DNA of 64,000 bases, from positions 7,427 through 71,426 of the forward strand of contig JACPHA010000011.1 in NCBI GenBank assembly GCA_016188825.1. The letters run 5' to 3'. Made by a program: the position numbers and the translations under genes. Numbering within the stretch: the first letter of the stretch is position 1; the number at the start of each line of letters is the position of its first letter. The notes under the pieces were generated by a model. It ran no database searches. It saw only the letters and a program-made list of their open reading frames with translations, and was not told the DNA's origin. This DNA comes from Candidatus Pacearchaeota archaeon. GTDB taxonomy: Archaea > Nanobdellota > Nanobdellia > Pacearchaeales > GW2011-AR1. Positions 19,841-62,080 of this stretch are shown here, piece by piece.

Positions 19841-19964
19841 TCAAGGAACTTGACAGAAGTTCCTTGAACATGTCAAGAATTTCCAATTCTTGAGCACACC
19901 CAAGAATTTAATTGTCGGAATTCTTGGTGTCCAAAAGTCCAAACACACACAAGGACTTTTTGAT
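19841..19964 (+). repeat. multi-hairpin intergenic repeat, family A copy A1
   Basis: Four hairpins: CAAGGAACTT/AAGTTCCTTG, CAAGAATT/AATTCTTG, CCAAGAATT/GAATTCTTGG, AAAAGTCC/GGACTTTT. Ends in TTTTTGAT. Confidence 0.8.
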
Positions 19965-20055
19965 TGTTAATATTTTGTGGAGTTGCTATAAATTCCTATG
20001 GACTAATTTTTCTAATTGCAGAAAACTTTAAATAAGTAAGTTTTGATTGATAAAA

Positions 20056-24284: not shown

Positions 24285-24347
24285 TATGTCAAGAATTTCC
24301 AATTCTTGAGCGTGCAAAAGTCCAAATACACACAAGGACTTTTTGAT
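24285..24347 (+). repeat. multi-hairpin intergenic repeat, family A copy A2 (short form)
   Basis: TATGTCAAGAATTTCCAATTCTTGAGC...AAAAGTCCAAATACACACAAGGACTTTTTGAT. Lacks the middle hairpin. Confidence 0.8.
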
Positions 24348-24378
24348 TAATAGTCTTTAGAAAAAAATTAGAAAAAAA

Positions 24379-28172: not shown

Positions 28173-28478
28173 ATGATGGTTGTCAAAATAGATTATGTCA
28201 AGAATTTCCAATTCTTGAGCACACCCAAGAATTTAATTGTCAGAATTCTTGGTGTCCAAAAGTCCAAACACACACAAGGACTTTTTGATGATATTTGCAT
28301 ATGGGGTAAGGGAAAAAGAGAGAGCAGTTACGCTTGTCGAGAAGAAGAGGGTTGTGTTGGCGTCTGCCTGACTAAGGCCCCGTACAGAAATGATAAAATC
28401 GAGATTGTAGAAGAGCTTTGCACTGACTGCAGAGCATGCGTTGACAGATGCGATCTTGGGGCATTGATAATAAAATAA
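28173..28478 (+). CDS. Cys-rich ferredoxin-like small protein; N-terminal third is encoded by repeat copy A3
   Basis: The C-terminal CTDCRACVDRC is a CxxCxxCxxxC 4Fe-4S motif. The only in-frame start codons lie upstream of the repeat. Confidence 0.35.
   Translation: MMVVKIDYVKNFQFLSTPKNLIVRILGVQKSKHTQGLFDDICIWGKGKRESSYACREEEGCVGVCLTKAPYRNDKIEIVEELCTDCRACVDRCDLGALIIK
28194..28289 (+). repeat. multi-hairpin intergenic repeat, family A copy A3
   Basis: Near-identical to 19871-19964 (three hairpins). Confidence 0.8.
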
Positions 28479-33482: not shown

Positions 33483-34178
33483 ATGGTTAAAATATCTGCG
33501 GGGAGTTATGATTTGAACAAATGGCTTTTCGGAGGTTATGAGAGTGATGTTGTGAGTGTGATTTATGGCGGTTCTGGAACAGGAAAGACAAATTTTTGTT
33601 TGTTGGTTGCGGTTTCTTTAGCTAAAAAGGATAAGAAGGTCATTTTTATTGATAGCGAGGGCGGTTTTAGTGTCGAGAGAGTTAAACAGATGGTTTTGGG
33701 CAAAACCGCGGATTACGAAAATGTTTTGAAGAATATTTTTCTTTTAAAGCCAACAAACTTTAACGAGCAGAAAAAAGTTTTTGACAAGCTGTTAAGCTAT
33801 TTGAAAGATGAAGTTGACTTGGTTGTTGTTGATGGCATGACTGCTTTGTACAGAATTGATTTTGCAATTGCGCGCGAGAAGGGAAATGGAGAGATGCAGA
33901 AGATAAATTCAGAGCTGGCGAGGCAGATAAAAACTCTGGCGGAGACTGCGCGGAAAAGAGAGATTCCGATTATTTTGACTAATCAGGTTTATAGGTGGGA
34001 GGACAGCGATAAAATGGTCGGAGGAGATATTTTGAAATATTGGGCTAAGTGCTGGATTGAGCTTGTGAACGAGAATGGCAAGAGAACAGCGCATTTGAGG
34101 AAGCACAGGAGTCTGCCGGAGAAGAGCTTGAATTTTCAGATAACAAACGAGGGAATTAGGAAGAGGGGGTGGATTTGA
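33483..34178 (+). CDS. radB: DNA repair and recombination protein RadB
   Basis: 231 aa. GGYESDVVSVIYGGSGTGKTNFCL Walker A and VVVDGMTALYR Walker B. Size fits RadB rather than RadA. Confidence 0.8.
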   Translation: MVKISAGSYDLNKWLFGGYESDVVSVIYGGSGTGKTNFCLLVAVSLAKKDKKVIFIDSEGGFSVERVKQMVLGKTADYENVLKNIFLLKPTNFNEQKKVFDKLLSYLKDEVDLVVVDGMTALYRIDFAIAREKGNGEMQKINSELARQIKTLAETARKREIPIILTNQVYRWEDSDKMVGGDILKYWAKCWIELVNENGKRTAHLRKHRSLPEKSLNFQITNEGIRKRGWI

Positions 34179-39620: not shown

Positions 39621-39720
39621 GATTATAGTGAAAAACATAAATAATTGAACGAAACAGTATGTTTTTCCCTTGATAGTCTGTGACAAATTTGTTCAATTAT
39701 TAAAGTCCCAGATTATATTA
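39621..39720 (+). repeat. palindromic MITE-like repeat, family B copy B5
   Basis: Aligns with 50051-50148 and with the reverse complement of 10611-10712. Core GATAGTCTGTGACA-loop-GTCCCAGATTATA. Confidence 0.7.
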
Positions 39721-39749
39721 ATTTTTTCATTGAAATTTTCTAGCAGGGA

Positions 39750-48553: not shown

Positions 48554-48898
48554 TTATTCCAAACCCAAGCTAATTTTCATTGCCAAATCAACCTTTTCCA
48601 TGATCTCGATGCCCAAAGAAGAAATCTTTTTTCTTATCCTTAATTTATCAATTGTTTTTATTTGATTTAACAAAATAGTAGAATTTCTATCCAAATTTGA
48701 ATCTGTCTTAAATAAAAAAACATTCGTTGGATATTCTTTTTTATAAAATTTAGATGTTATTGGGGCGACAATTGTCGTTGGAGAATACTTATTATAAATA
48801 TTATTCTGTACAACTAGTGCAGGTCTAATTCCCCCTTGTTCGCTATCTTTAACTGGCTCAAAATCGACAAGAACAATATCTCCTCTTTTAATCTCCAT
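48554..48898 (-). CDS. MazF/PemK-family toxin
   Basis: IKRGDIVLVDFEPVKDSEQGGIRPALVVQNN...TIVAPITS. ATG 48898 overlaps the antitoxin end by 11 nt. Confidence 0.85.
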   Translation of the reverse strand: MEIKRGDIVLVDFEPVKDSEQGGIRPALVVQNNIYNKYSPTTIVAPITSKFYKKEYPTNVFLFKTDSNLDRNSTILLNQIKTIDKLRIRKKISSLGIEIMEKVDLAMKISLGLE

Positions 48899-49091
48899 CT
48901 TTCCATTCCCAGTCAAAATCTTCGTCAATAGCTTGAAACTCCTTTGTTATCTTTAAACTTTCTTCTGCTGTCTCTTTAGCCCCTTCTATCATTAAATCAA
49001 TATGTCTTCTTTTTTGCTCTTCAACCTGCTTCATAATTTTTACAATAATATCTTCATAAGTTTCTTTGCTAGTTTCTTTCATTCTATCCAA
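48888..49091 (-). CDS. antitoxin partner of MazF (N-terminus possibly longer)
   Basis: 67-aa ORF with a TTG start. The upstream in-frame codons read TIYIQLNKNVKKSL (an RHH-like strand) but have no canonical start. Confidence 0.5.
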   Translation of the reverse strand: MDRMKETSKETYEDIIVKIMKQVEEQKRRHIDLMIEGAKETAEESLKITKEFQAIDEDFDWEWKDGD

Positions 49092-49137: not shown

Positions 49138-49530
49138 CTAAGAATTCAACCTCACAACACCATTTTCTTTTTTTATTAAGTTTGTTCCTTTAATAATGTC
49201 GCCGGTGATGTTTTGGACAGGATAGGCTGCCGCGTACTCATTGTTTAAAGTACGGATGTAAATTAAATTTTGGGTTATGTTGACTTCGTATTGCATGCCG
49301 GAAATTCTTTCAGGCACAAAAAACTGGCGTTGATAGCCATCGGTTGCTTTTGATGCAAGATCGATTTCGTTTTTTATATCATTTGCTGTTTTTTGAAATG
49401 CGTAATTTCTTTTCTGGATTGTTTTATCTGCAATGTCCTGCTGGAAGACAAAAAGAATGGTTAAGAAAAAAAACAAAACGCCGCCGATTAAAATCATGAA
49501 CTCAATTGCTGATTGGGATTTTTTTTTCAT
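49138..49530 (-). CDS. type IV pilin-like protein (class III signal peptide)
   Basis: MKKKSQSAIEFMILIGGVLFFFL: a basic stretch, then the QSAIEF processing-site pattern, then a hydrophobic helix. Confidence 0.7.
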   Translation of the reverse strand: MKKKSQSAIEFMILIGGVLFFFLTILFVFQQDIADKTIQKRNYAFQKTANDIKNEIDLASKATDGYQRQFFVPERISGMQYEVNITQNLIYIRTLNNEYAAAYPVQNITGDIIKGTNLIKKENGVVRLNS

Positions 49531-49535
49531 GTTGA

Positions 49536-49958
49536 TTAAACCAGTGTTAATTCTACGCGTTCAGGATTAGATTTTATTTCAAGCTTTATTTTTTTTACTC
49601 CGGGAGTTGGAGTAATCGTGCCTTGAATCGGAACATTGCTAGAATAAGCAATTACAGATGTTCCAGAACTTGTTGAGACGTTAAATATTATGTCTTTGTT
49701 TTGTATCGTGACTGCTTGAACTCCTTCAGGAAGATAAGCAGAGATTGTTGTCCTTGAGGGTTCTCCAGAATAGTAGATTCTTTCTGCAGAAGAAGTTATT
49801 TTTTTTGCAAATTGCTCGAGCTGGGAGAATTTTATTGAATCTTTTATTTCTGCTGAATAAAATAGTGCAATGCCTAAAATAGACAGAGCTACAAAAGTTA
49901 CGAAAGAAATTACGATCAAGTATTCTACACTGATTTGACCTCTTTTTTTATCAAGCAT
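49536..49958 (-). CDS. type IV pilin-like protein (class III signal peptide)
   Basis: MLDKKRGQISVEYLIVISFVTFVAL is a class III signal peptide pattern. Confidence 0.7.
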   Translation of the reverse strand: MLDKKRGQISVEYLIVISFVTFVALSILGIALFYSAEIKDSIKFSQLEQFAKKITSSAERIYYSGEPSRTTISAYLPEGVQAVTIQNKDIIFNVSTSSGTSVIAYSSNVPIQGTITPTPGVKKIKLEIKSNPERVELTLV

Positions 49959-50050
49959 TTTGACTATTTTTTAGGATTAATATTAGGAAATTTATAAGAT
50001 ATATAAATATTGACAAAAGGAGAGCTAATTCTATTATCTATTTTATTATC

Positions 50051-50148
50051 GAATTATAGCAGATGACAAAATATTTTGAGCAGTTTTTTGTTCATCCGAT
50101 TGATAGTCAAGACATAAATTGCTCAATTAATAATGTCATTGACTATAG
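50051..50148 (+). repeat. palindromic MITE-like repeat, family B copy B3
   Basis: GAATTATAGCAGATGACAAAATATTTTGAGCAG...GATAGTCAAGACA-19 nt-TGTCATTGACTATAG. Aligns with 17604-17700. Confidence 0.7.
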
Positions 50149-50340
50149 TAATAATTATTATAGATTTTATTAATAATCAAATATTTTTATTTTTCCATTA
50201 TTAAATTTTTAGATGCAGAGAATTCTTTCAGAATTTCTGTCTAGTCAATTCTTAAAATACTGCCTCTAAAAAAAGAATTGCCCACAGTTAAGATTTTAAA
50301 GGGAAATTGATTTATAAAGACAGGAATATAATTCAGTAAG

Positions 50341-50910
50341 ATGGATGATTTTAATAATGTAAATAGGATAAGAAATAGGGTGAAAGTTTTGTGGGGATTT
50401 TTGTTTTTTATTTTAGCTCTGTCTATTTTACATTCTGCTTGGCACATATATTATTTTGATGCCTCTGTTTCTGATATTTTTGGAAAGGGAATTTCCGGAC
50501 TTTTGATTGGGAAAGCAGATGTTGGAGAGGAAATTAAAAATTTTGTATATGGAGAATCAGTGTCGAAAATTTTTGTTTTGGCGGAATGGATTTTGATATT
50601 TTTAGCGATTTTGTTATTGTATATAGAGAGGAAAATGGGCCACAAGAAGGAGCTTTTTGTTATAGGAAATGATTTAAGGAACAACATAAGGAGATCTGGG
50701 ACTGCGACTGATTTAGATGTTTTGTATGATTTGCTTAAAGAAAGAAAACGCTTGAGCATTTCTGCGATTGCCAGAGCGTTTAATGTCAGTAGAGATTTGG
50801 TTATGGAATGGGGAAAGATATTTCAATCTAAGGAGATTGCAGAGATAGAATATCCGTTGTTTGGACAGCCAGAAATTGTTTTTAATGAAAAAGATTATAA
50901 AAAGAAATAA
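50341..50910 (+). CDS. membrane protein with a C-terminal wHTH-like domain
   Basis: 189 aa with two TM segments, then LDVLYDLLKERKRLSISAIARAFNVSRDLVMEW. Confidence 0.5.
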   Translation: MDDFNNVNRIRNRVKVLWGFLFFILALSILHSAWHIYYFDASVSDIFGKGISGLLIGKADVGEEIKNFVYGESVSKIFVLAEWILIFLAILLLYIERKMGHKKELFVIGNDLRNNIRRSGTATDLDVLYDLLKERKRLSISAIARAFNVSRDLVMEWGKIFQSKEIAEIEYPLFGQPEIVFNEKDYKKK

Positions 50911-50923
50911 AAGTAAATAGAAC

Positions 50924-52963
50924 ATGAAAAAAAGAGGTAAAGCAGAGCATAAAGAAGAGAAAAAAGCAAAACCCGAAAAAAGAATCGAAGACAGAAAGTT
51001 AAGAGCGGAAACAAAGAAAATTTTGCAGAAATTAACTTTTGATTTTGGAAAAGCCGATAAGGAATTTTTTCAAGATAAAACTACTGTGAAAGAGGAAGAA
51101 GAAAAAACACCGACGCCGGAATTAAAAAATGAGACAGAGAGCAAGGCTGAAGAAGGCATGCAGGAACAAGCGGCGCAGATTGAGCCAAAGGATCTCGAAA
51201 GAAAACAAATAAATGAGGGTTATTCAAAGTTCCCGATTAAAAAAGAAGAACCAGAGTTAATTAATAGGATTGTTGGAAAAACTGAAGGGGAAAAAGCTGA
51301 AAAATTTGAAGAATTAGAAGAAGGAGAAAAGGGAGAAGGAATTTTTGAGGAGGAAGGTGAAGAGGATAATTTTGAAACTGAGAGAGCTGAAATAGAGAGG
51401 AAACTTGAGGCAGTTAAGAAAGGAGAAAAAGAGACTAAAGTTATAGAGCTGAGACATCCTGCCTACAAAGGAAAGGCCAAGGTTCTGGAGGTTTATGAAA
51501 TTGACGTTGATGGAGCGAAAGTAAAGGTTGAGATAACAAAAGACCAGATGGGCACCAATTATAATCTGCATATACCAAGAGTAAGCCCCGCCACGGCGGC
51601 GCTGCTCGAAGAAATTAGGAATGAGCTCATAAGTGCGACGACGATAAGCATGAAAGAGCTTGTTGATCCGGATTCTTTTTCTTTTTTGAAGAAGAGGTTT
51701 ATTGAAGATGCGAGAAAAGTTTTGAAAGAGAAGCTTCCTAATTTAGAGAGAGTCCCTGAAAATTTTCTTGTTGGAATCTTAATACAGGAAATGCTTGGCT
51801 TGGGAAAAATAGAATTTTTGATAGAGGACCCGAATCTTGAAGAGATTGTAATTCCGTCGGCGAAAGAATACATAAGAGTTTACAGCAAAAAATATGGCTG
51901 GCTTTTAACAAATGTAAAAGTGGAAAGGGAGGAGGAGATAGTTAATTATTCTAATATAATAGCGAGGAGAGTTGGGAGGCAGATAACTGTTTTGAATCCT
52001 TTGCTTGATGCGCATTTGGTTACAGGAGACAGGATTAACGCAGTTTTGTATCCGATAGATACCAAAGGAAACACGATAACAGTCAGAAAATTTGCGAGAG
52101 ATCCCTTTACGATAATTGATTTTATTAATAACAATACTTGCAACCCGGAAATTTCTGCGCTGCTTTGGCTTGCGATAGAGTTTGAGATGAATATACTGAT
52201 TTCCGGCGGAACAGGTTCTGGAAAAACTTCTTTTTTAAATGCGTGCCTTCCGTTTATACCGCCGAACCACAGAATTATCAGTATTGAAGATACGAGGGAG
52301 CTTGTGCTGCCTGAATTTTTGTACTGGACTCCTCTTGTAACAAGAACTGCAAACCCTGAAGGAAAGGGAGAAGTCAGCATGCTTGATTTGCTTATTAATT
52401 CATTAAGAATGAGGCCTGATAGAATTGTCCTCGGGGAAATGAGAAGGCAACAGGAAGCAATGGTTTTGTTTGAGGCAATGCATACAGGACATTCTGTTTA
52501 TGCCACTGTGCACGCAGATACCGCTGCTGAAACTATTTCAAGACTTGTTAATCCTCCACTGAATGTTCCTCCGAATTTATTGAGGGCGGTTAATTTGAAT
52601 GTTGTTATGTTCAGAGACAGGAGGAGGGGCATAAGGAGAGTATTACAGATTGCAGAGCTAGAGGCATCAAAGGGAGGAGCGCAGGCAAATATTTTATATA
52701 GGTGGAGTCCAGAGTTGGATAAGATAATCAAGCACAGCGAGAGCTTCAGATTTTTTGAAGATGTTAGCAGGCACACGGGAATGTCACAGGCAGAGATTAA
52801 AAAGGACATAGAAGAAAAAATAAAAATTTTGTCCTGGCTTGTTGCTCACAGTGTCAGAGACATGGAATCGTTCGGCAATGTGATGAATTTGTATTATAAG
52901 AATAAAGAATTTCTTTTGCGCGCAATAAATAGAGGAAACAAGAGCGCAATTCTTGGGAAATAA
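50924..52963 (+). CDS. type II/IV secretion-family ATPase (FlaI/PilB/TadA-like) with an N-terminal Glu/Lys-rich extension of about 200 aa
   Basis: Walker A ISGGTGSGKTSFLN, IISIEDTREL, RMRPDRIVLGEMR, TGHSVYATVHA. Confidence 0.9.
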   Translation: MKKRGKAEHKEEKKAKPEKRIEDRKLRAETKKILQKLTFDFGKADKEFFQDKTTVKEEEEKTPTPELKNETESKAEEGMQEQAAQIEPKDLERKQINEGYSKFPIKKEEPELINRIVGKTEGEKAEKFEELEEGEKGEGIFEEEGEEDNFETERAEIERKLEAVKKGEKETKVIELRHPAYKGKAKVLEVYEIDVDGAKVKVEITKDQMGTNYNLHIPRVSPATAALLEEIRNELISATTISMKELVDPDSFSFLKKRFIEDARKVLKEKLPNLERVPENFLVGILIQEMLGLGKIEFLIEDPNLEEIVIPSAKEYIRVYSKKYGWLLTNVKVEREEEIVNYSNIIARRVGRQITVLNPLLDAHLVTGDRINAVLYPIDTKGNTITVRKFARDPFTIIDFINNNTCNPEISALLWLAIEFEMNILISGGTGSGKTSFLNACLPFIPPNHRIISIEDTRELVLPEFLYWTPLVTRTANPEGKGEVSMLDLLINSLRMRPDRIVLGEMRRQQEAMVLFEAMHTGHSVYATVHADTAAETISRLVNPPLNVPPNLLRAVNLNVVMFRDRRRGIRRVLQIAELEASKGGAQANILYRWSPELDKIIKHSESFRFFEDVSRHTGMSQAEIKKDIEEKIKILSWLVAHSVRDMESFGNVMNLYYKNKEFLLRAINRGNKSAILGK

Positions 52964-52964
52964 A

Positions 52965-53846
52965 ATGGAGTTCAAGATACCTTTTACAATATCTTCACTT
53001 GACAGGCTGAAAAAAAGAGCGCAGTATTTTAAGAAATACATAAGATACAGAAAAGATTCACGGCTTCAGAAGTATCTGGAGAATTGTGATGTTACCATAA
53101 CAAGAGAAGAATATCTTTCGATATGCCTAAAGGGTTTTTTTATTTCTCTTTTGGTTTTGTTTCTGTTGTCTTCGACAATTCTTGTTCTATTGAGCATTAG
53201 CAAAGCCATTTTGTTTTCTTCAGGCTTGTCAGTTGTTTTTTCGTCTTTTATTTTATTCACCCGAATAATTTATCCTAAAATTTTCAGCGCGAGAAAAGAG
53301 AGAGAAATAGAGAGAAATTTAATTTCTGCTTTGCAGGATATTCTTGTTCAGCTAAATTCCGGAGTGCCTTTGTTCAGCATAATGGTAAATATTTCTTCTT
53401 CTGATTACGGCGCTTTGAGCAAGGAATTTAAGAAAGTTGTTAAGAAGATTAATGCGGGACTGCCTCAGATTGATGTTCTCGAAGAAATAGGAGAGAAAAA
53501 TCCGTCTATTTACTTTAGAAGAACGCTTTGGCAAATAAGCAATGGATTGAGAGCGGGAAGCGACATTTCTATTATTATAAGAGAGAACATAAAGACATTA
53601 AATGAAGAGCAGCTGATTCAATTGCAGAATTACGGAAATAAATTAAATCCATTAGTAATGTTTTACATGCTCATATCGATTATAATCCCTGCGCTTTCGA
53701 TAACTTTTTTGACTGTTGTTTCTTCTCTTGTTAATCTAAACAGTTTTCTTACAACTTTGATGTTCATAGCTTTGTTTGTTTTTGTTATTTTAATTCAGAT
53801 TATGTTTTTAGGAATAATTAAATCGGCAAGGCCTAATTTGTTGTAA
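52965..53846 (+). CDS. pilus/archaellum platform protein, single T2SSF domain (TadB/TadC/FlaJ-like), first of two
   Basis: 293 aa. ALQDILVQLNSGVPLFSIMVNIS...EFKKVVKKINAGLPQIDVLEEIG flanked by TM helices. Confidence 0.75.
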   Translation: MEFKIPFTISSLDRLKKRAQYFKKYIRYRKDSRLQKYLENCDVTITREEYLSICLKGFFISLLVLFLLSSTILVLLSISKAILFSSGLSVVFSSFILFTRIIYPKIFSARKEREIERNLISALQDILVQLNSGVPLFSIMVNISSSDYGALSKEFKKVVKKINAGLPQIDVLEEIGEKNPSIYFRRTLWQISNGLRAGSDISIIIRENIKTLNEEQLIQLQNYGNKLNPLVMFYMLISIIIPALSITFLTVVSSLVNLNSFLTTLMFIALFVFVILIQIMFLGIIKSARPNLL

Positions 53847-53847
53847 A

Positions 53848-54801
53848 ATGAAAAAAGAAATAATAAAAAAGAGCGAAACAAAAACTCTGCAGAAAAAGAA
53901 AACTAAGGAAAAAGGGTTTGGCAGGAGAAAAGAGTTTTTGATCGCAGTTATTGCAGGATTGTTAGTTTCAACGCTTTTTGCTATTTTCACCAAAAGCTTT
54001 TTGAAAACAGTGATTTCATTTTTTGCTTTTTTTGTTTTATTTGTTTTTTATTTTATTGTCAAAGCCAGATTGAAGAAAAATGCCGAGATTAGAAGGATGG
54101 AAGAGGTTTTTCCTGATCTTATTGAACTTATGGCTTCTAATCTTAGAGCGGGAATGACAACTGACAGGGCGCTATTGTTAAGCTCGAGGAAAGAATTTGC
54201 TCCCTTGGATAAGGAGATACTTCAGGTAGGGAAAGATATTGTAACGGGAAAGGAAATGACCCGCGCTTTAGAAGAAATGGCCATAAGAATTAATTCTGAA
54301 AAAATTAAGAAAACAGTTTTACTTATAAACTCCGGAATTAGGGCGGGCGGAAATTTATCTGTTTTGCTGGAAGAGACCGCTATCAATATGAGGGAGAAGG
54401 AATTTGTTGAAAAAAGGGCGGCATCAAATGTTTTAATGTATGTCATTTTTATTTTCTTTGCGGTTTCAGTTGGGGCGCCAATTTTGTTTGGGCTTTCTTC
54501 TGTGCTTGTGGAAATTCTTACAAATGTTCTTGCGAATGTTGAACTGCCGAGCGGGCAGGGAAATGTAAATGTGCCTTTCACGTTGACAAAGGTAGGCATT
54601 TCTGTTAACTTTATTGTTTATTTTTCAGCTCTTTTTATTATCATTACAGACGTTTTAGCTTCTTTGGTTTTGGGACTGGTGAGAAGCGGCAATGAAAAAG
54701 ACGGCCTGAAATACACTTTGATTTTGATTTTAATCAGCATTAGTGTTTTTTTCGCCACAAGAGGCATCCTTTTAAATTATTTCAGTGACTTTTTTCGATG
54801 A
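53848..54801 (+). CDS. pilus/archaellum platform protein, single T2SSF domain, second of two
   Basis: 317 aa. FPDLIELMASNLRAGMTTDRALLL...IVTGKEMTRALEEMA flanked by TM helices. Starts 2 nt after the previous stop. Confidence 0.75.
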   Translation: MKKEIIKKSETKTLQKKKTKEKGFGRRKEFLIAVIAGLLVSTLFAIFTKSFLKTVISFFAFFVLFVFYFIVKARLKKNAEIRRMEEVFPDLIELMASNLRAGMTTDRALLLSSRKEFAPLDKEILQVGKDIVTGKEMTRALEEMAIRINSEKIKKTVLLINSGIRAGGNLSVLLEETAINMREKEFVEKRAASNVLMYVIFIFFAVSVGAPILFGLSSVLVEILTNVLANVELPSGQGNVNVPFTLTKVGISVNFIVYFSALFIIITDVLASLVLGLVRSGNEKDGLKYTLILILISISVFFATRGILLNYFSDFFR

Positions 54802-54851
54802 GGATGGCAAAGAAAGCGCCCAGTTAAGTTTTTATATGCTTTTTGTTTTAT

Positions 54852-54984
54852 TATGTCAAGGAACTTGACAGGTTCCTTGAGCACGAGAGAATTGCTGGCA
54901 ATTACAATTCTCTGTGCAGAAAATTCCTGACGTGAAGGAATTTTCTTGCATCCAAAAGTCCCAAACACCCAAGGACTTTTTGAT
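54852..54984 (+). repeat. multi-hairpin intergenic repeat, family A copy A5 (four hairpins, variant middle)
   Basis: CAAGGAAC/GTTCCTTG, AGAGAATTG/CAATTCTCT, GAAAATTCC/GGAATTTTC, AAAAGTCC/GGACTTTT. Ends TTTTTGAT. Confidence 0.75.
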
Positions 54985-55006
54985 AATAATTGTTAAAGAG
55001 ATTATA

Positions 55007-55948
55007 ATGGCAAAGAAAATTAAAAAGAGCAAGAAAAAGAGAGTGAAGAAAACTATGCACAAGATAGTTCATTCTAAGCACAAAATCAAACACTCGATTA
55101 AACATAAAATCAAGCGCGCAGTTAAGCATCATAAAAAGATGCATAAGATGCATGTGAAAGATGCGAGACATAAAAAGCACGGAGGACACGGCAGACAAAG
55201 GCGTGCGGGACGCAGATTAATCAATTTGGTTCCGAGGAAGAAGAAAAAATTGATAAGAGTGCCTCTAGGAATACCTAATTTTGATAAATTAATTCAGGGA
55301 GGTTTTGAAAAAAACACCACTAACTTGCTTGTCGGAGGTTCTGGAAGCGGAAAGACAATTTTTGCAGCGCAGTTTTTAGTCAGTGGAATGAAGAAAGGAG
55401 AGAAATGTCTATATGTAACATTTGAAGAGAAGAAGGAGCAGTTTTATGAAAACATGAAAGAGTTTGGCTGGGATTTGGAAGAATATGAGAAAAAAGGTTT
55501 GTTTACTTTTTTGGAGTACACGCCGATACAGGTTAAGACAATGTTAGAGGAAGGCGGGGGCTCTATAGAAAGCATTATTTTAAAAAAGAAGATAGACAGG
55601 ATGGTTTTTGACAGCATAACTTCTTTTGCTTTGCTTTTTGAGGACGAACTGTCGAAGAGAGAAGCGGCTTTGGCTTTGTTTGGGTTGATTCGGGGATGGA
55701 ATTGCACCGCTTTGCTTACTCTGGAAGAAGAGCCATTGGCGCGCGATAAAGCTACTTCAAGCGCGCTGGAGTTTGAGTCTGATTCAATTATAATTTTATA
55801 TTTTGTTAGGCAAAGAGGAGAAAGAGAAAGATATGTAGAGGTTATGAAGATGAGAGGAACAAAACATTCGGAAAAGGTTTATGCTTTTGAAATCGGCAAG
55901 GGAGGAATTATTATAAAAAGACCTGTCTCTAAATTTATTCCAGGATGA
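55007..55948 (+). CDS. KaiC/RecA-superfamily single-domain ATPase (FlaH/ArlH-like) with a His/Lys-rich N-terminal region
   Basis: GIPNFDKLIQGGFEKNTTNLLVGGSGSGKTIFAAQF Walker A and MVFDSITS Walker B. The first ~70 aa are K/H-rich. ATG 55007 preferred. Confidence 0.75.
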   Translation: MAKKIKKSKKKRVKKTMHKIVHSKHKIKHSIKHKIKRAVKHHKKMHKMHVKDARHKKHGGHGRQRRAGRRLINLVPRKKKKLIRVPLGIPNFDKLIQGGFEKNTTNLLVGGSGSGKTIFAAQFLVSGMKKGEKCLYVTFEEKKEQFYENMKEFGWDLEEYEKKGLFTFLEYTPIQVKTMLEEGGGSIESIILKKKIDRMVFDSITSFALLFEDELSKREAALALFGLIRGWNCTALLTLEEEPLARDKATSSALEFESDSIIILYFVRQRGERERYVEVMKMRGTKHSEKVYAFEIGKGGIIIKRPVSKFIPG

Positions 55949-56041
55949 TTTTTTTAAGTTGAGAATTTATAAACTATGAATTATACTATTTTATGTATGA
56001 ATTATTCAAAGTTCTCTATAAACAAGAGGCAATTTAGAAAT

Positions 56042-56524
56042 ATGAAAAAGGCGCAGGCGTGGGGATTTGATTTGTTGATTGGCGGAACGATATTTTTAGG
56101 AGCAATAATCTTTTTTTATTTGTTTACTTATAATTATCCGTCAAGCGGAGAGGAAACTTTTGATATTTTGATTTACGAGGCAGGATTGGTGAGTGATAGT
56201 TTGTTGTCAGAAGGTTATCCAGTTGATTGGAATGAAACAAATGTTGTTAGAATTGGAATTTTAAGCCAGAATAAAATTGATAGTAATAAATTGGAAAAAT
56301 TTTATAATTTGACTAACACAAGTAGTGGATATGCAAAATCGAAAAGTGCTTTTAATGTGAGGAATGATTATTTTGTTAATTTATCAGAACCAACATCGGT
56401 TGGCGGAGTGCAAGTTACAGGAATAGGGAGGTTGAATGATGGGGCTGAAAACCTTATTAAGAGAGAAAGATTTACGATTTATAATAATAAACCTGTGACA
56501 ATGTATGTTTACATGTCGAAATAA
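56042..56524 (+). CDS. pilin-like protein (class III signal peptide-like N-terminus)
   Basis: MKKAQAWGFDLLIGGTIFLGAIIFFYLF. ATG 56042 lies within the longer tracked ORF. Confidence 0.55.
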   Translation: MKKAQAWGFDLLIGGTIFLGAIIFFYLFTYNYPSSGEETFDILIYEAGLVSDSLLSEGYPVDWNETNVVRIGILSQNKIDSNKLEKFYNLTNTSSGYAKSKSAFNVRNDYFVNLSEPTSVGGVQVTGIGRLNDGAENLIKRERFTIYNNKPVTMYVYMSK

Positions 56525-56590
56525 AATTGGCAAGAGTATGTAAATATCTAAAAATGGATAAAAAAGTCGAGGTTTTTACCAGAGGTAAAA

Positions 56591-59245
56591 ATGGATAAAA
56601 AAAGAGGGATTTTTTTCAGCGCAGATGCTTTGGTAGCGGTGATTATAATCATGTTTGTTATTTTTGTTGCTTATCCTATTTTTAAAACTGTAAAACCAGA
56701 AACAGAATTGCAGAATGATATTATTGTGAGTTTGTCTACTTTGAAGATAGGGGACATGTATGCGAGCAACAGTTATGTGCAGGCGCTTTTAGACAGCGGG
56801 ATAATTAAAGATACAAATAAACCCTTGCTTGAACAGATTGGGGAATTTTATGTTACTAATTTTTCTATGGCGCAGAAACTTGGAGAGGAATTTTTGAAAG
56901 ACTTGAATACCAAGAGGAACATAGGGATTTTTTACGGTGGTAGGTTAATAGCTTCTAAAAATTCTACTTCCTATGAAAATGCATCAAATGTTGAAGTAGC
57001 TAGACAATTAATAAGTGGAATCAGAGAAGGAAATAGCACAACAGGGTTTTCTGCGAGGGCTTTTCTTGCAAAAAGCTTGCAGAACAAATATTTTTATTTT
57101 GGAGGTTATGTTGGAGACGGGAACATAACTTTGAGAGCAGATTATAAAGGAAATATAACCGGAGCCGAGCTGGAGACAGCAATTAACGATAATTTTGATG
57201 TTTATGTTAATGGCAAATATGCCGGTTCTTTTTTGAAATCAGCAAATGAATTTACGCCGCAGAAATATTCTTTGCCTACTGGAAACTTTAGTTCTGGAGA
57301 GAATTATATTGATATTTTTGGAAATAATTTGTATATAGCTGGTGGATTTTTGAAGATAACTTATGCCAGCGATGCAGAGTTTGAGCAGGCAACAAGATAT
57401 TATTTTCCAGGTGTTGACGGAGTTGTCAATGTTTATGATGGCTTTTATCTGCCAAATATAAATACGATGAACATACTTTTGCATTTCAATGCAAGCCATC
57501 AGGTGTTTTTAACTATTGGAAATATAACAGTCTTTAATGAAACAGTTGCAGGAGAGGCAACAAGAACAGTTTCTGATGCAGAGCTTTCTTCGAAACTTGA
57601 CTATGGCTCAACAAGCGGGAAGAATGTTCCTGTCAGATTTGGAATAAGAGAGCTTGTGGAAACTTTGGGCGGAGGAAATGCAGATGTCATTTTGATTACT
57701 GATTATTCTGGAAGCATGAAGAAGGCGATAAATGATGACCTATCACAAGGGAATGCTAATTTTGATTGCGCAAATCTTGAAGCCAATCCGAATGCGCAAA
57801 AAGCAAGACTGGCAGAATGCCTGGATTTTCTTTTTGTTGATATAATTATGAATAACAACAATAACAGAATCTGGCCAGTTTACTTGCATTCAGATGCTGT
57901 TGGAGCTTATACGGGCAATGCTTCCGATCCTGTTGCTGTAAAAAACTATATAGATAACAATCCTCCTGGAAACCCCAAAGATAAAACTTGTTTGGCTTGT
58001 GTTTTGAACAAGGGTTATGATATTTTGAAAAGTAATACAAATTCAAGCCAACCAGCAAGAAAAAGATTCATAATTTTGATGACTGATGGAGTGCCAACGC
58101 ACTGCGCTTCCGGTTCTTGCGCAAGCAATTCTTCTGTTTATGGAACGAAATATTGTGACGGCTATTGTGATTTTCAGGGAGGGCAGCAAGAATCTTGTAT
58201 TACTCAGGGATGTGATGATGCTTTGTGCGACAATGCCGTGCAGAACACAATTTATTCCGCGAACAGAAGCACAATTGATTTAAACGCTGTTATTTACACG
58301 ATTGGCTTTGGGCTTGTTGGAACTAATTGCAACAAGGCAAATTCGACGCTTACCGACGTAGCAACGATTGGAAACGGAGAGTATTTTTACAGTTCAAACG
58401 TGAGCGAGCTGAAATTAATTTACGAAAACATTGCAAAAGAAATTTTAAGGGTTTCTTTCAGGGACCAGACGGCAAATCTGACAGGGGCGAATTTCTTTTC
58501 AAGGCTGTATGCGGATTCTTATATTGAATTTAATTACATAAAAGAACAGATTCCATTGGGAGTTATTTTGACTTTGGAGCAGAATTTTAATGATAGTTAT
58601 CATGGGAACTTTTCAATTCCTCCTAATTCCAGTCTGGTTGAGGCAAAGGCGGTTTCATATTCAGGATATAGATGGACAGATTATGCTTCCTTAAATGGAA
58701 TAAAGTTTTACAACTTGACAGAATATATAAAGAAATATTTGGAGTTAGGAGACCCTTTTGTTTTTACACTGCCAAAGAATTTGATTCAGAGTAATAATAC
58801 AGTTAGAATAACAACTGGAAGCTCGCCGGGAAACACAACTTTTGGTTCAGTGAGCAATAAAATTATTTATACCGTTGTCAAGAACACAACTTCTTTCGCG
58901 ACTGGAAATGAAAGCACTGGCGGAATTTTCGCTTTTGCGGAAGGCTGTGAATGGAATGTAACTTTTGAAGATGGGATAACTGACATAATTCCAATGCCTG
59001 CTTTTTATAGCAATGGAAATTCATGCACTTATGACGGGAGTGATTGCGACGCCGACGGAACTCCATGTGATATTAATGACGCTTTGCAAGTTGCTGCCAA
59101 TAATTTATTGAAAGTTCTTGATTTTGATTCTGATGGTAAGGTAGATGTGAAATTTTCTGAGCAGAATTTGCAAGTTGCTGGGGAGACGATAACAGGCATT
59201 CCATTTGCTTGGAGCACGGAGGTTCAAGTCATAGTATGGGATTAA
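56591..59245 (+). CDS. large pilin-like surface protein with a von Willebrand factor A domain
   Basis: 884 aa. N-terminus MDKKRGIFFSADALVAVIIIMFVIF, MIDAS DYSGS (57701-57715), ILMTDGVPT, a Cys-rich segment and many N-x-S/T sites. Confidence 0.7.
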   Translation: MDKKRGIFFSADALVAVIIIMFVIFVAYPIFKTVKPETELQNDIIVSLSTLKIGDMYASNSYVQALLDSGIIKDTNKPLLEQIGEFYVTNFSMAQKLGEEFLKDLNTKRNIGIFYGGRLIASKNSTSYENASNVEVARQLISGIREGNSTTGFSARAFLAKSLQNKYFYFGGYVGDGNITLRADYKGNITGAELETAINDNFDVYVNGKYAGSFLKSANEFTPQKYSLPTGNFSSGENYIDIFGNNLYIAGGFLKITYASDAEFEQATRYYFPGVDGVVNVYDGFYLPNINTMNILLHFNASHQVFLTIGNITVFNETVAGEATRTVSDAELSSKLDYGSTSGKNVPVRFGIRELVETLGGGNADVILITDYSGSMKKAINDDLSQGNANFDCANLEANPNAQKARLAECLDFLFVDIIMNNNNNRIWPVYLHSDAVGAYTGNASDPVAVKNYIDNNPPGNPKDKTCLACVLNKGYDILKSNTNSSQPARKRFIILMTDGVPTHCASGSCASNSSVYGTKYCDGYCDFQGGQQESCITQGCDDALCDNAVQNTIYSANRSTIDLNAVIYTIGFGLVGTNCNKANSTLTDVATIGNGEYFYSSNVSELKLIYENIAKEILRVSFRDQTANLTGANFFSRLYADSYIEFNYIKEQIPLGVILTLEQNFNDSYHGNFSIPPNSSLVEAKAVSYSGYRWTDYASLNGIKFYNLTEYIKKYLELGDPFVFTLPKNLIQSNNTVRITTGSSPGNTTFGSVSNKIIYTVVKNTTSFATGNESTGGIFAFAEGCEWNVTFEDGITDIIPMPAFYSNGNSCTYDGSDCDADGTPCDINDALQVAANNLLKVLDFDSDGKVDVKFSEQNLQVAGETITGIPFAWSTEVQVIVWD

Positions 59246-60195
59246 TAAATGCAGGCATTAAAATAAGAAACAAAAAAGGAATTTTTTTTACAATGATGGC
59301 AATCTTGATAATTTCTCTGTTTGTTTTGTCTTATACTTTTTACAATGAGATAAAAGAGGACAAATCAGTAAACAACAGAGTGAATACAATGAATAATTTT
59401 CTTTTTTCGGTTGAAAAGGACTTGGAGAGACAGATGTATATTTTTGGTTTTAGAACTATTTTTTTGATTGAGAAGAAAATTGTTGAGACAGGAACTTACA
59501 GGACAAATATAAATCAGACATTCCACGAGGCTTTTTTCAACGGGACCATTTATGGAGAGGCACAGGCATTATTGAATGACGCAAAGTTTTCACATTTTAA
59601 TAATACTATAAATAACAATGCTAAAAAAATAAATGTTGATATAATTTTTTCTGACCCCAAAGTTGAAGTCACGCAGGATGATCCCTGGCATATCAAGGTT
59701 ACATTGATTGCGGACCTGGAGATGAGTGATATTGGAGGTGTTGCTTTATGGAAAAAGACAGAGAAAATTTCAGGGAGAATATCTGTTGAAAATTTTGAAG
59801 ACCCAATTTATTATACAATTACGAGCGGCAGAGCGAGCAACAAAATTACAAGAACACCATATACAGATTTTAGTGTCATTGCTGATTTTTCCGAGCATGC
59901 AACCAACTCTTATTACAAAGCAGACAGTGATGCGCCGAGTTTTCTTGACAGGCTTGCGGGGAACATAACTATTGCGAATCCGCAGGGAATTGAATCAATT
60001 GTTAATTTACAGAAATTGTCGCAGCAGGGTGTTTCTGTGCAAGAAAAATCTACGATTGACCATATTTATTTTTCTTCTGATAATCCAAGTTTTGGTTGTG
60101 TTAATGGAATGCCGTCGTGGTTTAGGATTGACGACACACATGCTGATAAATATAACGTAACTGTTGGGGGTTGTTCTGGCGGATTGTTTGAATGA
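59236..60195 (+). CDS. pilin-like protein (class III signal peptide-like N-terminus)
   Basis: MGLINAGIKIRNKKGIFFTMMAILIISLFVL has the same KKGIFF pattern as 56591. Overlaps the previous stop by 10 nt. Confidence 0.55.
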   Translation: MGLINAGIKIRNKKGIFFTMMAILIISLFVLSYTFYNEIKEDKSVNNRVNTMNNFLFSVEKDLERQMYIFGFRTIFLIEKKIVETGTYRTNINQTFHEAFFNGTIYGEAQALLNDAKFSHFNNTINNNAKKINVDIIFSDPKVEVTQDDPWHIKVTLIADLEMSDIGGVALWKKTEKISGRISVENFEDPIYYTITSGRASNKITRTPYTDFSVIADFSEHATNSYYKADSDAPSFLDRLAGNITIANPQGIESIVNLQKLSQQGVSVQEKSTIDHIYFSSDNPSFGCVNGMPSWFRIDDTHADKYNVTVGGCSGGLFE

Positions 60196-60385
60196 TATAT
60201 AGAGAATTTTTTAAAATATAACTAAGGATAATAGGTTTTTCACTAACTTTGCATTTCCTCTATTGACAGTCAAAGCCAAAAGGTAAATTATTAATGTTTC
60301 TTACTATAAACATAATTAAATAAATATTTTCAATTATAGATATTAGAAAATTAAGAACAAATTAAATTGACGAAAAAAGGGAATA

Positions 60386-60393
60386 TTTATAAA
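60386..60393 (+). promoter_or_regulatory. candidate TATA box for the pilin gene
   Basis: TTTATAAA lies 60 nt upstream of ATG 60453. The predicted transcript would have a ~35-nt leader containing the Shine-Dalgarno sequence. Confidence 0.3.
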
Positions 60394-60440
60394 CTATATT
60401 ATTTTAATAAATATATTAAATTATTTTTGGAAAAAGAAAA

Positions 60441-60447
60441 AGGAGGT
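60441..60447 (+). promoter_or_regulatory. Shine-Dalgarno sequence of the pilin gene
   Basis: AGGAGGT lies 5 nt upstream of ATG 60453. The same GGAGGT element precedes 21061 and 33181. Confidence 0.6.
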
Positions 60448-60452
60448 AAAAA

Positions 60453-60938
60453 ATGCACAGGAAAGGTCAAGCAGCTATGGAGTTTTTGATGACTTACGGC
60501 TGGGCTATTTTAGCGGCGATAATTGCCATCGGAGTGCTTGCATATTTCGGGGTCTTCAATCCGAGCAGATTGGCAGGATCTGCGGGAGTCTTGAATGCAC
60601 CAATGAATGTTGATGAATTTAATATACTGGCTGATGATTCATCATGCTCTGGCGGTACGGATTGCATGAACCTTATTATTACACAAAATTCTGGACAAGC
60701 GCTTAATGTGACATCTACTAATATAACTTTAACAAGTGGCGGTTCTGGGAGTTGCTCTGATACGATTTTGTTGCCATCAGCGTGGTCATCTGGAAGTAAA
60801 CAGACTTTCCTCTTTGAATGCGGTAATTCTTTTGAAAATGGAGCTTCAATAGCGGGTAACATCGAAATAAAGTACACCGTAACAGGGAGCGATTTAGTAC
60901 AAACCTCAACCGGCAATATCAGAGGGGTTGCTCAATAA
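60453..60938 (+). CDS. type IV pilin (class III signal peptide), candidate major pilin
   Basis: MHRKGQAAMEFLMTYGWAILAAIIAIGVLAYF is a canonical archaeal prepilin N-terminus. Strong Shine-Dalgarno and a Ser/Thr/Gly-rich body. Confidence 0.8.
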   Translation: MHRKGQAAMEFLMTYGWAILAAIIAIGVLAYFGVFNPSRLAGSAGVLNAPMNVDEFNILADDSSCSGGTDCMNLIITQNSGQALNVTSTNITLTSGGSGSCSDTILLPSAWSSGSKQTFLFECGNSFENGASIAGNIEIKYTVTGSDLVQTSTGNIRGVAQ

Positions 60939-60981: not shown

Positions 60982-61245
60982 TTAAATTTCCCAGTTAGTT
61001 TCTTGTTTTTTGTCTTTTAATTTTTCCAAAGCGAATGAAATATCTTCCTTTTTCAGAGTTTTCCTACCTCTTATTGTCATTTCATCTTTCAAGATTAACA
61101 TTAAGTTTTTTAGCTTTTCTTCCAAGTTTTTTTCTAAATAGACGAGAGCATTTGGATTTACTCTTTTAATTCCATTTTCTTTAAGCTTTTTTATTAAGTT
61201 TTTTCTTTTAATTAATGTATTTACTTTTTTATTACTTTTTTTCAT
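60982..61245 (-). CDS. histone-fold protein with a Lys-rich N-terminal tail
   Basis: 87 aa. GIKRVNPNALVYLEKNLEEKLKNLMLILKDEMTIRGRKTLKKEDISFAL aligns with HMf-type GAERVS...AGRKTIKAEDIELA. Confidence 0.65.
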   Translation of the reverse strand: MKKSNKKVNTLIKRKNLIKKLKENGIKRVNPNALVYLEKNLEEKLKNLMLILKDEMTIRGRKTLKKEDISFALEKLKDKKQETNWEI

Positions 61246-61251
61246 TTTTTG

Positions 61252-61788
61252 CTAATGTATTAATATATACAATTTTTGAAATTTTACTTTAAAATTCAAG
61301 AAAAACTGCTCGAAAATATAATCGTTTTCGATAGGAGAAACAAATATTTGGTTGGCAAGCCATTTCCCGCCCCTTTCTTTTACCATTCCAATCTCTTGAT
61401 TTTTTCCTCTTAATACATTTACGATTTTAACTTTATTTGATGGTTTCAGGGTTGTTAAATCGTACTTAAAAAGACATTTATTTTCAAATTTATAAGTTTC
61501 TGCAAAAGACATTTCTTTTTTTATACTATAACCTTCTCTAAACAGAGCATTAATGATAGAGGGAGGATTAACAAAAAAATCTTCAGGCGACAACAGACTT
61601 ACGTGGAATCCTTCAATGTTTTTAAATTTTTCAGGATTTTTTGTTATTATTGCTATGTCAATGTCTTTGTGAGTTGATTTGCCTTTTATCATAGATCCAA
61701 ATAGGATAATATCCAAAATATCTTTATCTTTCAAAATACCTTTTAGTTTACTTTTTATTTCTGATATAATTTTTAAGTTCATGGGCAT
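61252..61788 (-). CDS. nucleotidyltransferase-domain protein (partner of the upstream HEPN gene)
   Basis: 178 aa. ILFGSMIKGKSTHKDIDIAII carries the GS-x9-DxD NTase motif. Confidence 0.75.
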   Translation of the reverse strand: MPMNLKIISEIKSKLKGILKDKDILDIILFGSMIKGKSTHKDIDIAIITKNPEKFKNIEGFHVSLLSPEDFFVNPPSIINALFREGYSIKKEMSFAETYKFENKCLFKYDLTTLKPSNKVKIVNVLRGKNQEIGMVKERGGKWLANQIFVSPIENDYIFEQFFLNFKVKFQKLYILIH

Positions 61789-62080
61789 AACTTTTCAGTT
61801 TTTCTGCGTCCTCCTTTTTAAGACGCAGATTATAAGATTTTGTGTATAATTGGAAGAACCCAGATACTTTATTATAAATTTCAATAAAATATTTTTGTAA
61901 TAGAGAAAATCTTTCACTATGATTTTTCGGAATTATTTTTATTTCATTATAAATAAAATAATCGCATAATATTACAATTGCTTTAAAAAAGTCACTAACA
62001 GCAACATTAAATCTTTCTTTTTTTATATTTTCTTCTCCAGACAGTAAAAATTCTTCAGCATTTTTTAATAACTCTTCCAT
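61748..62080 (-). CDS. HEPN-domain protein
   Basis: 110 aa. AEEFLLSGEENIKKERFNVAVSDFFKAIVILCDY...PKNHSERFSLL is a HEPN-like pattern. Overlaps the NTase gene. Confidence 0.6.
   Translation of the reverse strand: MEELLKNAEEFLLSGEENIKKERFNVAVSDFFKAIVILCDYFIYNEIKIIPKNHSERFSLLQKYFIEIYNKVSGFFQLYTKSYNLRLKKEDAEKLKSYAHELKNYIRNKK

Follow-up and report, generated by a model that had tools for sequence, protein, structure and literature searches.

A conserved gene cluster for a probable non-archaellar type IV pilus, with a KaiC-family ATPase and a pilin-anchored vWA adhesin candidate, in a Pacearchaeota genome

Results

Eleven genes at positions 49138-60938 of the window, a stretch of 64,000 nucleotides from a Candidatus Pacearchaeota genome, most probably encode an archaeal type IV pilus of the non-archaellar kind, most likely an adhesive one. 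The assignment draws on family membership, sequence motifs, predicted folds and the conservation and synteny of the genes, from which a composition of the filament can be proposed. An ORF check of the window recovered all eleven genes where the original prediction had placed them (Table 1), and profile searches bore out the main families of the type IV pilus-like locus that it had described: one T2SSE ATPase, two single-domain T2SSF genes and one KaiC-family ATPase. Six of the products (a1, a2, P, p160, p884 and p319) have class III signal-type N-termini, and one of these, p884, is a vWA protein. The components by which the type IV filament superfamily is recognised, namely an ATPase, a platform, class III pilins and an A24 peptidase, are all present in the genome.

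The same 11-gene order was found in ~45 other genomes, labelled Pacearchaeota or Woesearchaeota, and is also kept within the same genus; such recurrence places the locus far beyond chance. Pilin a1 is syntenic in ~39 loci and p160 is conserved in 45. The source genome is reduced (~1 Mb, in an assembly that is 83% complete) and has three pilus-like loci, the present one and two further ones, among which the roles could be split differently. The gene cluster itself is complete and well conserved, and it illustrates well a pilus type known from DPANN before.

Table 1. Features of the pilus locus, in window coordinates (a slash within an N-terminal motif precedes residue +1)
Feature	Coordinates	Strand	Description
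Pilin a1	49138..49530	-	130 aa; class III signal KKKS/QSAIEF; weak DUF7266 match
Pilin a2	49536..49958	-	140 aa; class III signal KRG/QISVEY
Small membrane protein (TM-wHTH)	50341..50910	+	two predicted TM helices, short GISGxSIG outer loop
Pilus assembly ATPase	50924..52963	+	T2SSE/VirB11 superfamily, archaeal FlaI/GspE2 type
TadC1	52965..53846	+	single T2SSF domain; PF00482, 54 bits
TadC2	53848..54801	+	single T2SSF domain; PF00482, 54.5 bits
Array of four hairpins	54850..54995	+	copy of the window's intergenic repeat family, repeat families D2/D4
KaiC-family ATPase	55007..55948	+	single domain, CI-like; PF06745, 202 bits (cut-off 26.6)
p160	56042..56524	+	minor pilin-like; N-terminus KKA/QAWGFD
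p884	56591..59245	+	pilin-anchored vWA adhesin (candidate); class III-type N-terminus, vWA with MIDAS
p319	59236..60195	+	minor pilin-like; N-terminus NKKG/IFFT
Pilin P	60453..60938	+	161 aa; N-terminus RKG/QAAMEFLMTYGWAIL

The assembly ATPase matches PF00437 with 120 bits (cut-off 24.9) and carries a Glu/Lys-rich N-terminal extension of ~200 aa. Its top NCBIfam match is the FlaI model NF058587, although the score of 277.7 bits lies well under the cut-off of 550, so that it does not qualify as an ArlI/FlaI equivalog. Nor is it of the TadA/CpaF type, since with the bacterial Tad model TIGR03819 it scores 182 bits where 373 are required, and it reaches only 136 of the 1000 bits set for the bindosome ATPase model. 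Among PDB chains the A. fulgidus GspE2 (2OAP, 225 bits) ranks above FlaI (193) and CpaF (166), and there is a weak PilB3_C match. Homologues of more than 70% identity number in the thousands in MAGs labelled Nanoarchaeota or Pacearchaeota. The gene of the TM-wHTH protein always lies immediately upstream of the ATPase gene. An alignment of 31 orthologues shows the C-terminal, cytoplasmic winged-helix-like domain of this protein to be conserved; its HTH matches in Pfam are weak, and a profile comparison links it only weakly to 2D1H, a wHTH regulator (E 0.054).

The two platform proteins correspond to the halves of a fused FlaJ/TadC. TadC1, the N-terminal half, aligns to residues 20-284 of the 586-aa TadC of L096, and TadC2, the C-terminal half, to residues 319-582 of the same protein and to positions 184-464 of the ArlJ model. 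A start of TadC1 at the ATG at 52965 is supported by its orthologues, most of which are 293 aa long.

The class III-like N-termini that had been pointed out in the locus proved to be conserved, with the motifs of all six proteins retained in 26-41 orthologues (38 each for a1 and a2). The three small pilins share K-[GAS]/Q..xE and p884 and p319 share K[RK]G/xFF[ST]; Gln occupies +1 in a1, a2, P, p160 and their orthologues, and a hydrophobic helix follows the motif in all six proteins and in their orthologues. For a2 there is also a weak match to PF04021, Class_IIIsignal (E 0.0076). In P, conservation among 33 orthologues reaches at least 80% at nearly every one of the first 22 mature positions, and the gene has its own strong Shine-Dalgarno sequence, as originally noted (GGAGGT, 7 nt upstream of the ATG at 60453). 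P is a candidate for the major pilin. The absence of a prepilin peptidase noted in the original prediction holds for the window, where none was found; in the genome, an A24 prepilin peptidase is encoded on another contig (C14:70259-71206; PF01478, 50.5-53.8 bits, cut-off 26.5). This enzyme matches only the generic A24 model, together with a weak FlaK match. The reported lack of archaellum-specific genes agrees with a search of the 83%-complete genome for archaellin PF01917, which gave no match at E <= 1.

The ATPase downstream of the platform genes had been described as KaiC/FlaH-like, and of this the first half stands. It belongs to the KaiC family and scores 150 bits with TIGR03880 (KaiC_arch_3) but only 51.7 with the ArlH model NF052589 (cut-off 215); in the PDB it is matched best by KaiC domains and by PH0186, with no FlaH chain among the matches at E <= 1e-5. 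Assignment as an ArlH/FlaH orthologue was rejected on these grounds. It is not a circadian KaiC proper either, having one domain rather than two in tandem. In an alignment of 31 orthologues the Walker A Lys (K116), the FEE pair (F139-E140-E141), the Walker B Asp (D202) and the KMRG motif are invariant or nearly so, and as judged from these sequences the catalytic residues are intact. At the positions aligned with the CII phosphosites S431/T432 the protein has E255 and F256, as in the CI domain, and the Lys/His-rich N-terminal tail is variable.

TadC2 and KaiC are separated by 23-66 bp in 34 of 44 orthologous loci. In a sample of 300 genomes of the phylum, 41 have an ATPase at least 55% identical to the present one; a KaiC homologue lies at most 10 kb away in 29 of these, and in 10 the two genes are on separate contigs. 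The linkage survives rearrangement of the remaining locus across many families, and in some families other genes, such as a P-type ATPase, stand between TadC2 and KaiC. Only one of the three pilus-like loci of the genome, the present one, carries a KaiC gene. A hairpin repeat copy predicted between TadC2 and KaiC was indeed found between 54801 and 55007. This array (MFE -63 kcal/mol, z -5.7) is a secondary insertion and not a part of the machine.

The 884 aa of p884 comprise a beta-rich N-terminal module, the vWA domain, a Cys-rich insert and C-terminal beta domains. By sequence alone the vWA matches are weak, and the CglB model matches with E 4.6e-6. The AF2 model (pLDDT 79.9) has a vWA fold, for which the top Foldseek match is the PilB minor pilin of S. 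sanguinis (7BA2/7B7P, E 2e-9), followed by SpaC, PitA, TRAP and VWF A1. The MIDAS motif is DYSGS at 371-375 (DxSxS), with D371, S373, G374 and S375 conserved in at least 90% of the sequences. A pilin-type N-terminus, a vWA fold and an intact MIDAS are thus combined in one protein, as in a vWA modular pilin, and with this predicted structure p884 is a strong adhesin candidate. Its PilB-like fold and preserved MIDAS support an adhesive pilus.

The flanking p160 and p319 form with p884 a block that travels as one evolutionary unit. In the p160 model (pLDDT 93.5) a long, kinked helix at the N-terminus leads through a helical linker to a beta-sheet at the C-terminus, a pilin-like order of secondary structure; the model gave no significant fold match in the PDB, whether to FlaF/FlaG or to any beta-sandwich stator. 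The globular part of p319 is conserved among 35 aligned orthologues and returned no Pfam, NCBIfam or PDB match; its gene always follows that of p884. Profile searches assigned neither protein to the ArlF or ArlG family.

Discussion

The components of the locus suggest how the filament might be built. The six class III proteins (a1, a2, P, p160, p319 and p884) would be inserted in the membrane and trimmed in trans by the single A24 peptidase of the genome, encoded on contig C14. TadC1 and TadC2, as the two halves of a FlaJ/TadC, would jointly form the membrane platform, on which a hexameric FlaI/GspE2-type ATPase would power assembly of a filament, probably from P and/or a1 and a2. The p160-p884-p319 module most likely forms a priming or tip complex that displays the MIDAS vWA domain as an adhesin, and we infer a position at the tip of the filament. 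By analogy with ArlH and ArlI, KaiC most likely binds the assembly ATPase or sends it a signal, and would gate assembly through ATP binding and hydrolysis. The TM-wHTH protein may be a conserved accessory or regulatory partner.

One may speculate, tentatively and with considerable doubt, that in this DPANN lineage the single-domain, catalytically intact KaiC is a constant third part of the motor on its cytoplasmic side, an equivalent of ArlH that arose or was retained outside the archaellum. According to this speculation, its ATP cycling could make the single ATPase alternate between extension and retraction, the locus having no PilT-like ATPase, or could set the moment at which the pilus is deployed on contact with a host, and the TM-wHTH protein would tether it to the membrane.

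In a different view, the locus would encode a rotary motility organelle resembling an archaellum, or a hybrid between pilus and archaellum, in which KaiC would act as ArlH and p160 and p319 as ArlF/ArlG-like stators. The FlaI model is indeed the best NCBIfam match of the ATPase, KaiC is encoded inside the operon, like arlH in arl operons, and the N-termini of p160 and p319 form membrane helices like those of ArlF/G. However, both diagnostic models are missed by a wide margin (FlaI 278 bits of 550, ArlH 52 of 215), GspE2 outranks FlaI in the PDB, no archaellin was detected in the 83%-complete genome, the p160 model shows no stator fold, and the filament candidates are Q(+1) pilins of 130-161 aa. 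KaiC, moreover, keeps its catalytic Glu pair, whereas ArlH, according to a review, does not hydrolyse ATP. An organelle of either sort is highly improbable.

It is also quite unlikely that the filament serves mainly in competence-type uptake of DNA or nutrients, or as a secretion pseudopilus, with adhesion not its main role. In favour of this reading, DPANN papers hypothesise an import of DNA or nutrients by way of such pili (PMC9563170), and the organism has a reduced genome. Against it, the conserved proteins include a single large effector, a vWA/MIDAS module with pilus adhesins as its nearest structures, the locus encodes neither a DNA-binding pilin nor a ComEC-like channel nor a solute-binding protein, and the bindosome ATPase model is far from matched. 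Uptake and adhesion are not mutually exclusive. As for KaiC and the wHTH membrane protein, they could simply lie beside the pilus genes and act more generally in signalling or transcription, as KaiC-like ATPases are general archaeal signalling proteins and as the intervening genes and separate contigs seen in some genomes would allow. We regard this as unlikely given the co-oriented, closely spaced genes in most loci, a linkage that outlasts locus rearrangement across many families, and the restriction of KaiC to one of the three pilus-like loci. An adhesive pilus with KaiC as one of its parts is preferred.

The original prediction proposed a candidate attachment organelle, which the presence of the p884 adhesin candidate makes a reasonable proposal. 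The partner bound may be a host cell, which sequence does not distinguish from a surface, DNA or a nutrient. DPANN need contact with host cells, pili-like appendages have been observed on ultrasmall groundwater episymbionts, and the molecules of contact are mostly unknown. The locus supplies concrete and widely conserved candidates for these, in the form of a pilin-anchored vWA/MIDAS adhesin and two partner minor pilins, and offers a tractable question in the control of a type IV filament motor by a KaiC-type ATPase.

The gene set had been taken as atypical and KaiC as a partner established for archaella; neither view survives comparison with the literature. For non-archaellar pili, KaiC-family ATPases have been described in operons of clades 2 and 4B, and paired tadC genes in these clades as well as in clade 1 (Makarova et al. 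2016, PMC4858521). Tad-like clusters of DPANN have kaiC and no peptidase (Xie et al. 2022, PMC9563170), and two pilus loci are conserved across cluster-2 DPANN, Pacearchaeota included (Hamm et al. 2024, PMC11291902). The locus largely matches a described type that includes KaiC, leaving little of the novelty first proposed. It is a known pilus type of DPANN and not a new machine; with the design published in outline and recurring in many genomes, the window adds detail and no new principle.

Of the systems to which single parts can be likened, the bacterial Tad (type IVc) pilus also has two single-domain platform proteins, TadB and TadC, but its ATPase is of a type whose model the present one does not reach. 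ArlH (FlaH) shares with KaiC a single RecA/KaiC-like domain beside a FlaI-family ATPase and platform genes, and serves as a model for the action of KaiC on the motor ATPase; KaiC differs in failing the ArlH models, in being nearer to KaiC CI and PH0186 and in keeping the Glu-Glu pair. S. sanguinis PilB has, like p884, a pilin-type N-terminus fused to a MIDAS vWA, and CpaL/TadG-type vWA proteins and PilY1 of bacterial pili may also be likened to it. Compared with PilB, p884 is twice as long, has additional beta-rich and Cys-rich modules, is only ~14% identical in sequence and belongs to an archaeal system with archaeal-type peptidase processing.

Among whole loci, the Epd pilus of Methanococcus maripaludis (clade 1) likewise has its platform encoded by two separate TadC-like genes, along with several minor pilins, adhesin candidates of large size that bear a class III signal, and Gln +1 pilins of the DUF361/Class_IIIsignal type. 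The present locus differs in having KaiC and small pilins of 130-161 aa rather than ~70 aa, and a Pfam search of its ORFs found no EppA, FleN/MinD or DUF2341. Loci 1 and 2 of Hamm et al. and the Nanohaloarchaeota clusters of Xie et al. come from the same superphylum and share a CpaF/TadA-type ATPase, TadC, pilin/FlaF-like genes and a P-loop NTPase, the latter clusters also kaiC and the lack of a peptidase; the 'NTPhyd' of these papers may be the KaiC orthologue. Those accounts stress coiled-coil proteins or lack a gene-by-gene description of the vWA module. The KaiC-linked euryarchaeal pili of clades 2 and 4B, such as the PilB3-PilC3 type of Haloferax volcanii, combine a T2SSE ATPase with tadC, often in two copies, and a KaiC-family gene in or beside the operon, as found here, with pilins partly nearby and the peptidase in trans; in the PDB the present ATPase is nearest to the non-archaellar GspE2 of A. 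fulgidus, and it has a weak PilB3_C match. Relative to these pili, the present pilins have Gln +1 and Glu +5 in place of a PilA-type N-terminus, and the locus adds the conserved p160-vWA-p319 module and the TM-wHTH gene.

Results

The window is part of contig C19 in a genome of 1.0 Mb (20 contigs, 83% complete). In a homologue search, close homologues of the window's proteins carried the labels Nanoarchaeota, Pacearchaeota or Woesearchaeota, which places the organism among the DPANN archaea. ORF calls recovered every gene named in the original prediction, the Shine-Dalgarno sequence before pilin P was confirmed, and profile searches gave the family matches listed in the table. An Rfam search of the window returned tRNAs and no other RNA family, and counts from a promoter and terminator scan of the window, made with bacterial models that are uninformative for an archaeon, were not above those of shuffles.

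Coordinates of the pilus-like locus and associated features. Positions without a prefix refer to the window; C8 and C14 are other contigs of the same genome, and L numbers are related loci from other genomes.
Feature	Coordinates	Assignment
41-nt AT-rich motif	17670-17710, 39685-39725, 50115-50155	three copies
Other repeat-family members	19870-19975, 24312-24358, 28195-28300	intergenic
231-aa ORF	33483-34178	weak KaiC Pfam match, 36 bits
Upstream flank gene pair	48554-49091	PemK/MazF-like
ORF of the pilin pair	49536-49958	weak Class_IIIsignal match
ATPase	50924-52963	T2SSE; Glu/Lys tail, 50924-51523
TadC1	52965-53846	single T2SSF domain
TadC2	53848-54801	single T2SSF domain
Hairpin array	54850-54995	four consecutive hairpins between TadC2 and KaiC; MFE -63 kcal/mol, z -5.7
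KaiC	55007-55948	PF06745, 202 bits; Lys/His tail, 55007-55240
p160	56042-56524	minor pilin-like
p884	56591-59245	weak vWA matches
p319	59236-60195	minor pilin-like
Pilin P	60453	
Histone-fold gene	60982-61245	
Downstream flank gene pair	61252-62080	nucleotidyltransferase/HEPN-like
Pilus-like locus	C8:65992-74651	FlaI-like ATPase (396 bits), two single-domain TadC genes, RGLSPVIATMLLV-type pilins
Pilus-like locus	C14:57828-71206	distant T2SSE ATPase, about nine tandem KKAQ-type pilin genes, A24 peptidase
A24 prepilin peptidase	C14:70259-71206	beside KKAQ-type pilin genes
896-aa gene	L027:6714-9404, L028:6763-9453	between TadC2 and KaiC
wHTH protein of another family	L031:3576-4427	Lys/His tail
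Fused TadC locus	L096:1028-11922	Thermoplasmatota MAG

The order of the eleven genes is repeated in at least 10 genomes of the same genus and in about 45 of 58 loci from named MAGs. Module A comprises the divergent pilin pair, the TM-wHTH protein (H), the ATPase (E), the two TadC proteins (F1, F2) and KaiC (K), arranged a1< a2< H> E> F1> F2> K>, and module B is p160> p884> p319> (P>). About nine loci (L060, L068, L070, L072, L073, L080, L083, L086, L089) carry module B as a single block in reverse orientation beyond the pilin pair, which shows that the locus evolves in two modules. Elsewhere in the order, other families keep H-E-F1-F2 with a nearby KaiC and place the minor pilins upstream; two of their loci carry an 896-aa gene whose N-terminal sequence looks like that of a P-type cation ATPase. 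Judged from translations alone, the small gene pairs on both flanks of the window locus resemble toxin-antitoxin modules, and one neighbouring gene appears to encode a histone fold.

A fused 586-aa TadC from a Thermoplasmatota MAG aligns with TadC1 over its N-terminal half and with TadC2 over its C-terminal half. In that MAG the fused gene and a pilus ATPase lie less than 5 kb from a two-domain 807-aa KaiC and a 310-aa KaiC, showing that the KaiC-pilus linkage extends beyond DPANN. The C-terminal domain of the TM-wHTH protein, about 60 aa long, is conserved (TDLDxLYxxLKEKK...EW.KILE...Y.P.FGEPE), and the wHTH similarity of this protein is marginal in both Pfam and a profile search against PDB sequences.

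Walker A, the F-E-E catalytic pair, Walker B and KMRG of KaiC are conserved in the orthologue alignment, and the residues aligned to the CII phosphosites are E-F, as in a CI domain. The basic N-terminal tail of KaiC ranges from 0 to about 130 residues among orthologues and is not conserved in sequence. Charged low-complexity tails also occur on other cytoplasmic parts, namely the ATPase and, in other families, the wHTH protein, and their length varies widely between orthologues. The 231-aa ORF was considered as a second pilus KaiC and rejected, its translation appearing by eye to be that of a RadB-like recombinase paralogue. Within its own genome KaiC occurs at the window locus and not at the two other pilus-like loci.

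The TadC2-KaiC gap measures 23-66 bp in 34 of 44 loci, from which it follows that KaiC belongs ancestrally to the ATPase operon. The gap in the window is 205 bp and contains a four-hairpin copy of an intergenic repeat family; since most orthologous loci have only the short spacer, this array is a secondary insertion. A few relatives carry different structured inserts of 200-470 bp at the same spot. The pilin pair and the ATPase operon diverge from a region that holds one copy of the 41-nt motif, which may serve as a common promoter or regulatory element.

The N-terminal motifs of the six pilin-like proteins are kept across 26-41 orthologues, reading [KR]-[GAS]|Q-x-x-x-E in the three small pilins (a1, a2 and P), KKA|QAWGFD in p160 and K-[RK]-G|x-F-F-[ST] in p884 and p319. 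The confident p160 model (pLDDT 93.5) starts with a long, kinked helix, which a helical linker joins to a sheet at the C-terminus, and this predicted order of elements is pilin-like; a Foldseek search of the PDB gave it no significant match, FlaF and FlaG included. Profile searches against PDB sequences matched neither p160 nor p319, and hhalign found no relation between the two outside the N-terminus. The p319 protein is conserved among orthologues, and profile searches matched it to no known family or structure. The best match of the p884 model (pLDDT 80) is PilB of Streptococcus sanguinis, a modular minor pilin bearing a vWA domain (E 2e-9); after it rank sortase-pilus tip adhesins with vWA and classical vWA domains. 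At least 90% of sequences keep the MIDAS motif of p884, DxSxS.

Discussion

An adhesive type IV pilus is the best reading of this locus. The top model score of the ATPase is to FlaI, which might suggest an archaellum-like machine or a pilus/archaellum hybrid; at 278 bits this is far under the cut-off of 550, and in the PDB the match to Archaeoglobus fulgidus GspE2, a non-archaellar protein, is closer than those to FlaI or CpaF. The ATPase at C8 is more FlaI-like. KaiC reaches 52 bits for ArlH against a cut-off of 215 and 150 bits for KaiC_arch_3; no FlaH chain is among its PDB matches, which are KaiC domains and Pyrococcus PH0186. No archaellin was found in the 83%-complete genome, and we reject the hybrid and regard any archaellum-like machine as highly improbable.

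It is rather unlikely that KaiC is a mere neighbour of the pilus genes, given its ancestral place in the operon. In a phylum sample of 300 genomes, 41 encode an ATPase that shares 55% identity or more with that of the window; by our count, a KaiC homologue lies within 10 kb of it in 29, the two are on separate contigs in 10, and a KaiC match is absent from 2. A filament mainly for uptake or secretion is improbable beside the vWA-bearing p884.

The families, synteny, motifs and predicted folds are established here; for the adhesive pilus we infer how the components may interact, what the filament may contain and that it may bind hosts. The genome's only A24 prepilin peptidase would act in trans, and the split platform and the ATPase would assemble the filament. 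The p160-p884-p319 set would form a tip or priming complex displaying the vWA adhesin, and KaiC, on the model of the ArlH-ArlI pair, would regulate or partner the ATPase in an ATP-dependent manner. The original prediction of a KaiC-containing pilus locus, possibly for host attachment, was accurate as an observation, and its interpretation is borne out in part: attachment is plausible, and the gene set, there taken as atypical, belongs to an already known kind of pilus.

DPANN Tad-like clusters with kaiC and without a peptidase have been described (Xie et al. 2022, PMC9563170). Two pilus loci are conserved across cluster-2 DPANN, Pacearchaeota included (Hamm et al. 2024, PMC11291902), and the supplements of that study do not indicate whether 'NTPhyd' is KaiC. 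Pili-like appendages joining ultrasmall cells to hosts have been imaged (He et al. 2021). The points of interest here are the putative vWA pilin-adhesin module and a KaiC fixed in the operon with its catalytic residues intact. Among archaeal pili, operons of clades 2 and 4B include KaiC-family ATPases, several clades have a pair of tadC genes, and large adhesins with class III signals are described together with minor pilins (Makarova et al. 2016, PMC4858521). Like clade 1 pili, the locus has Gln +1 pilins, several minor pilins and a large adhesin, and like clade 2 pili it has KaiC and a GspE2-like ATPase, so that it combines clade 1-like and clade 2-like traits.
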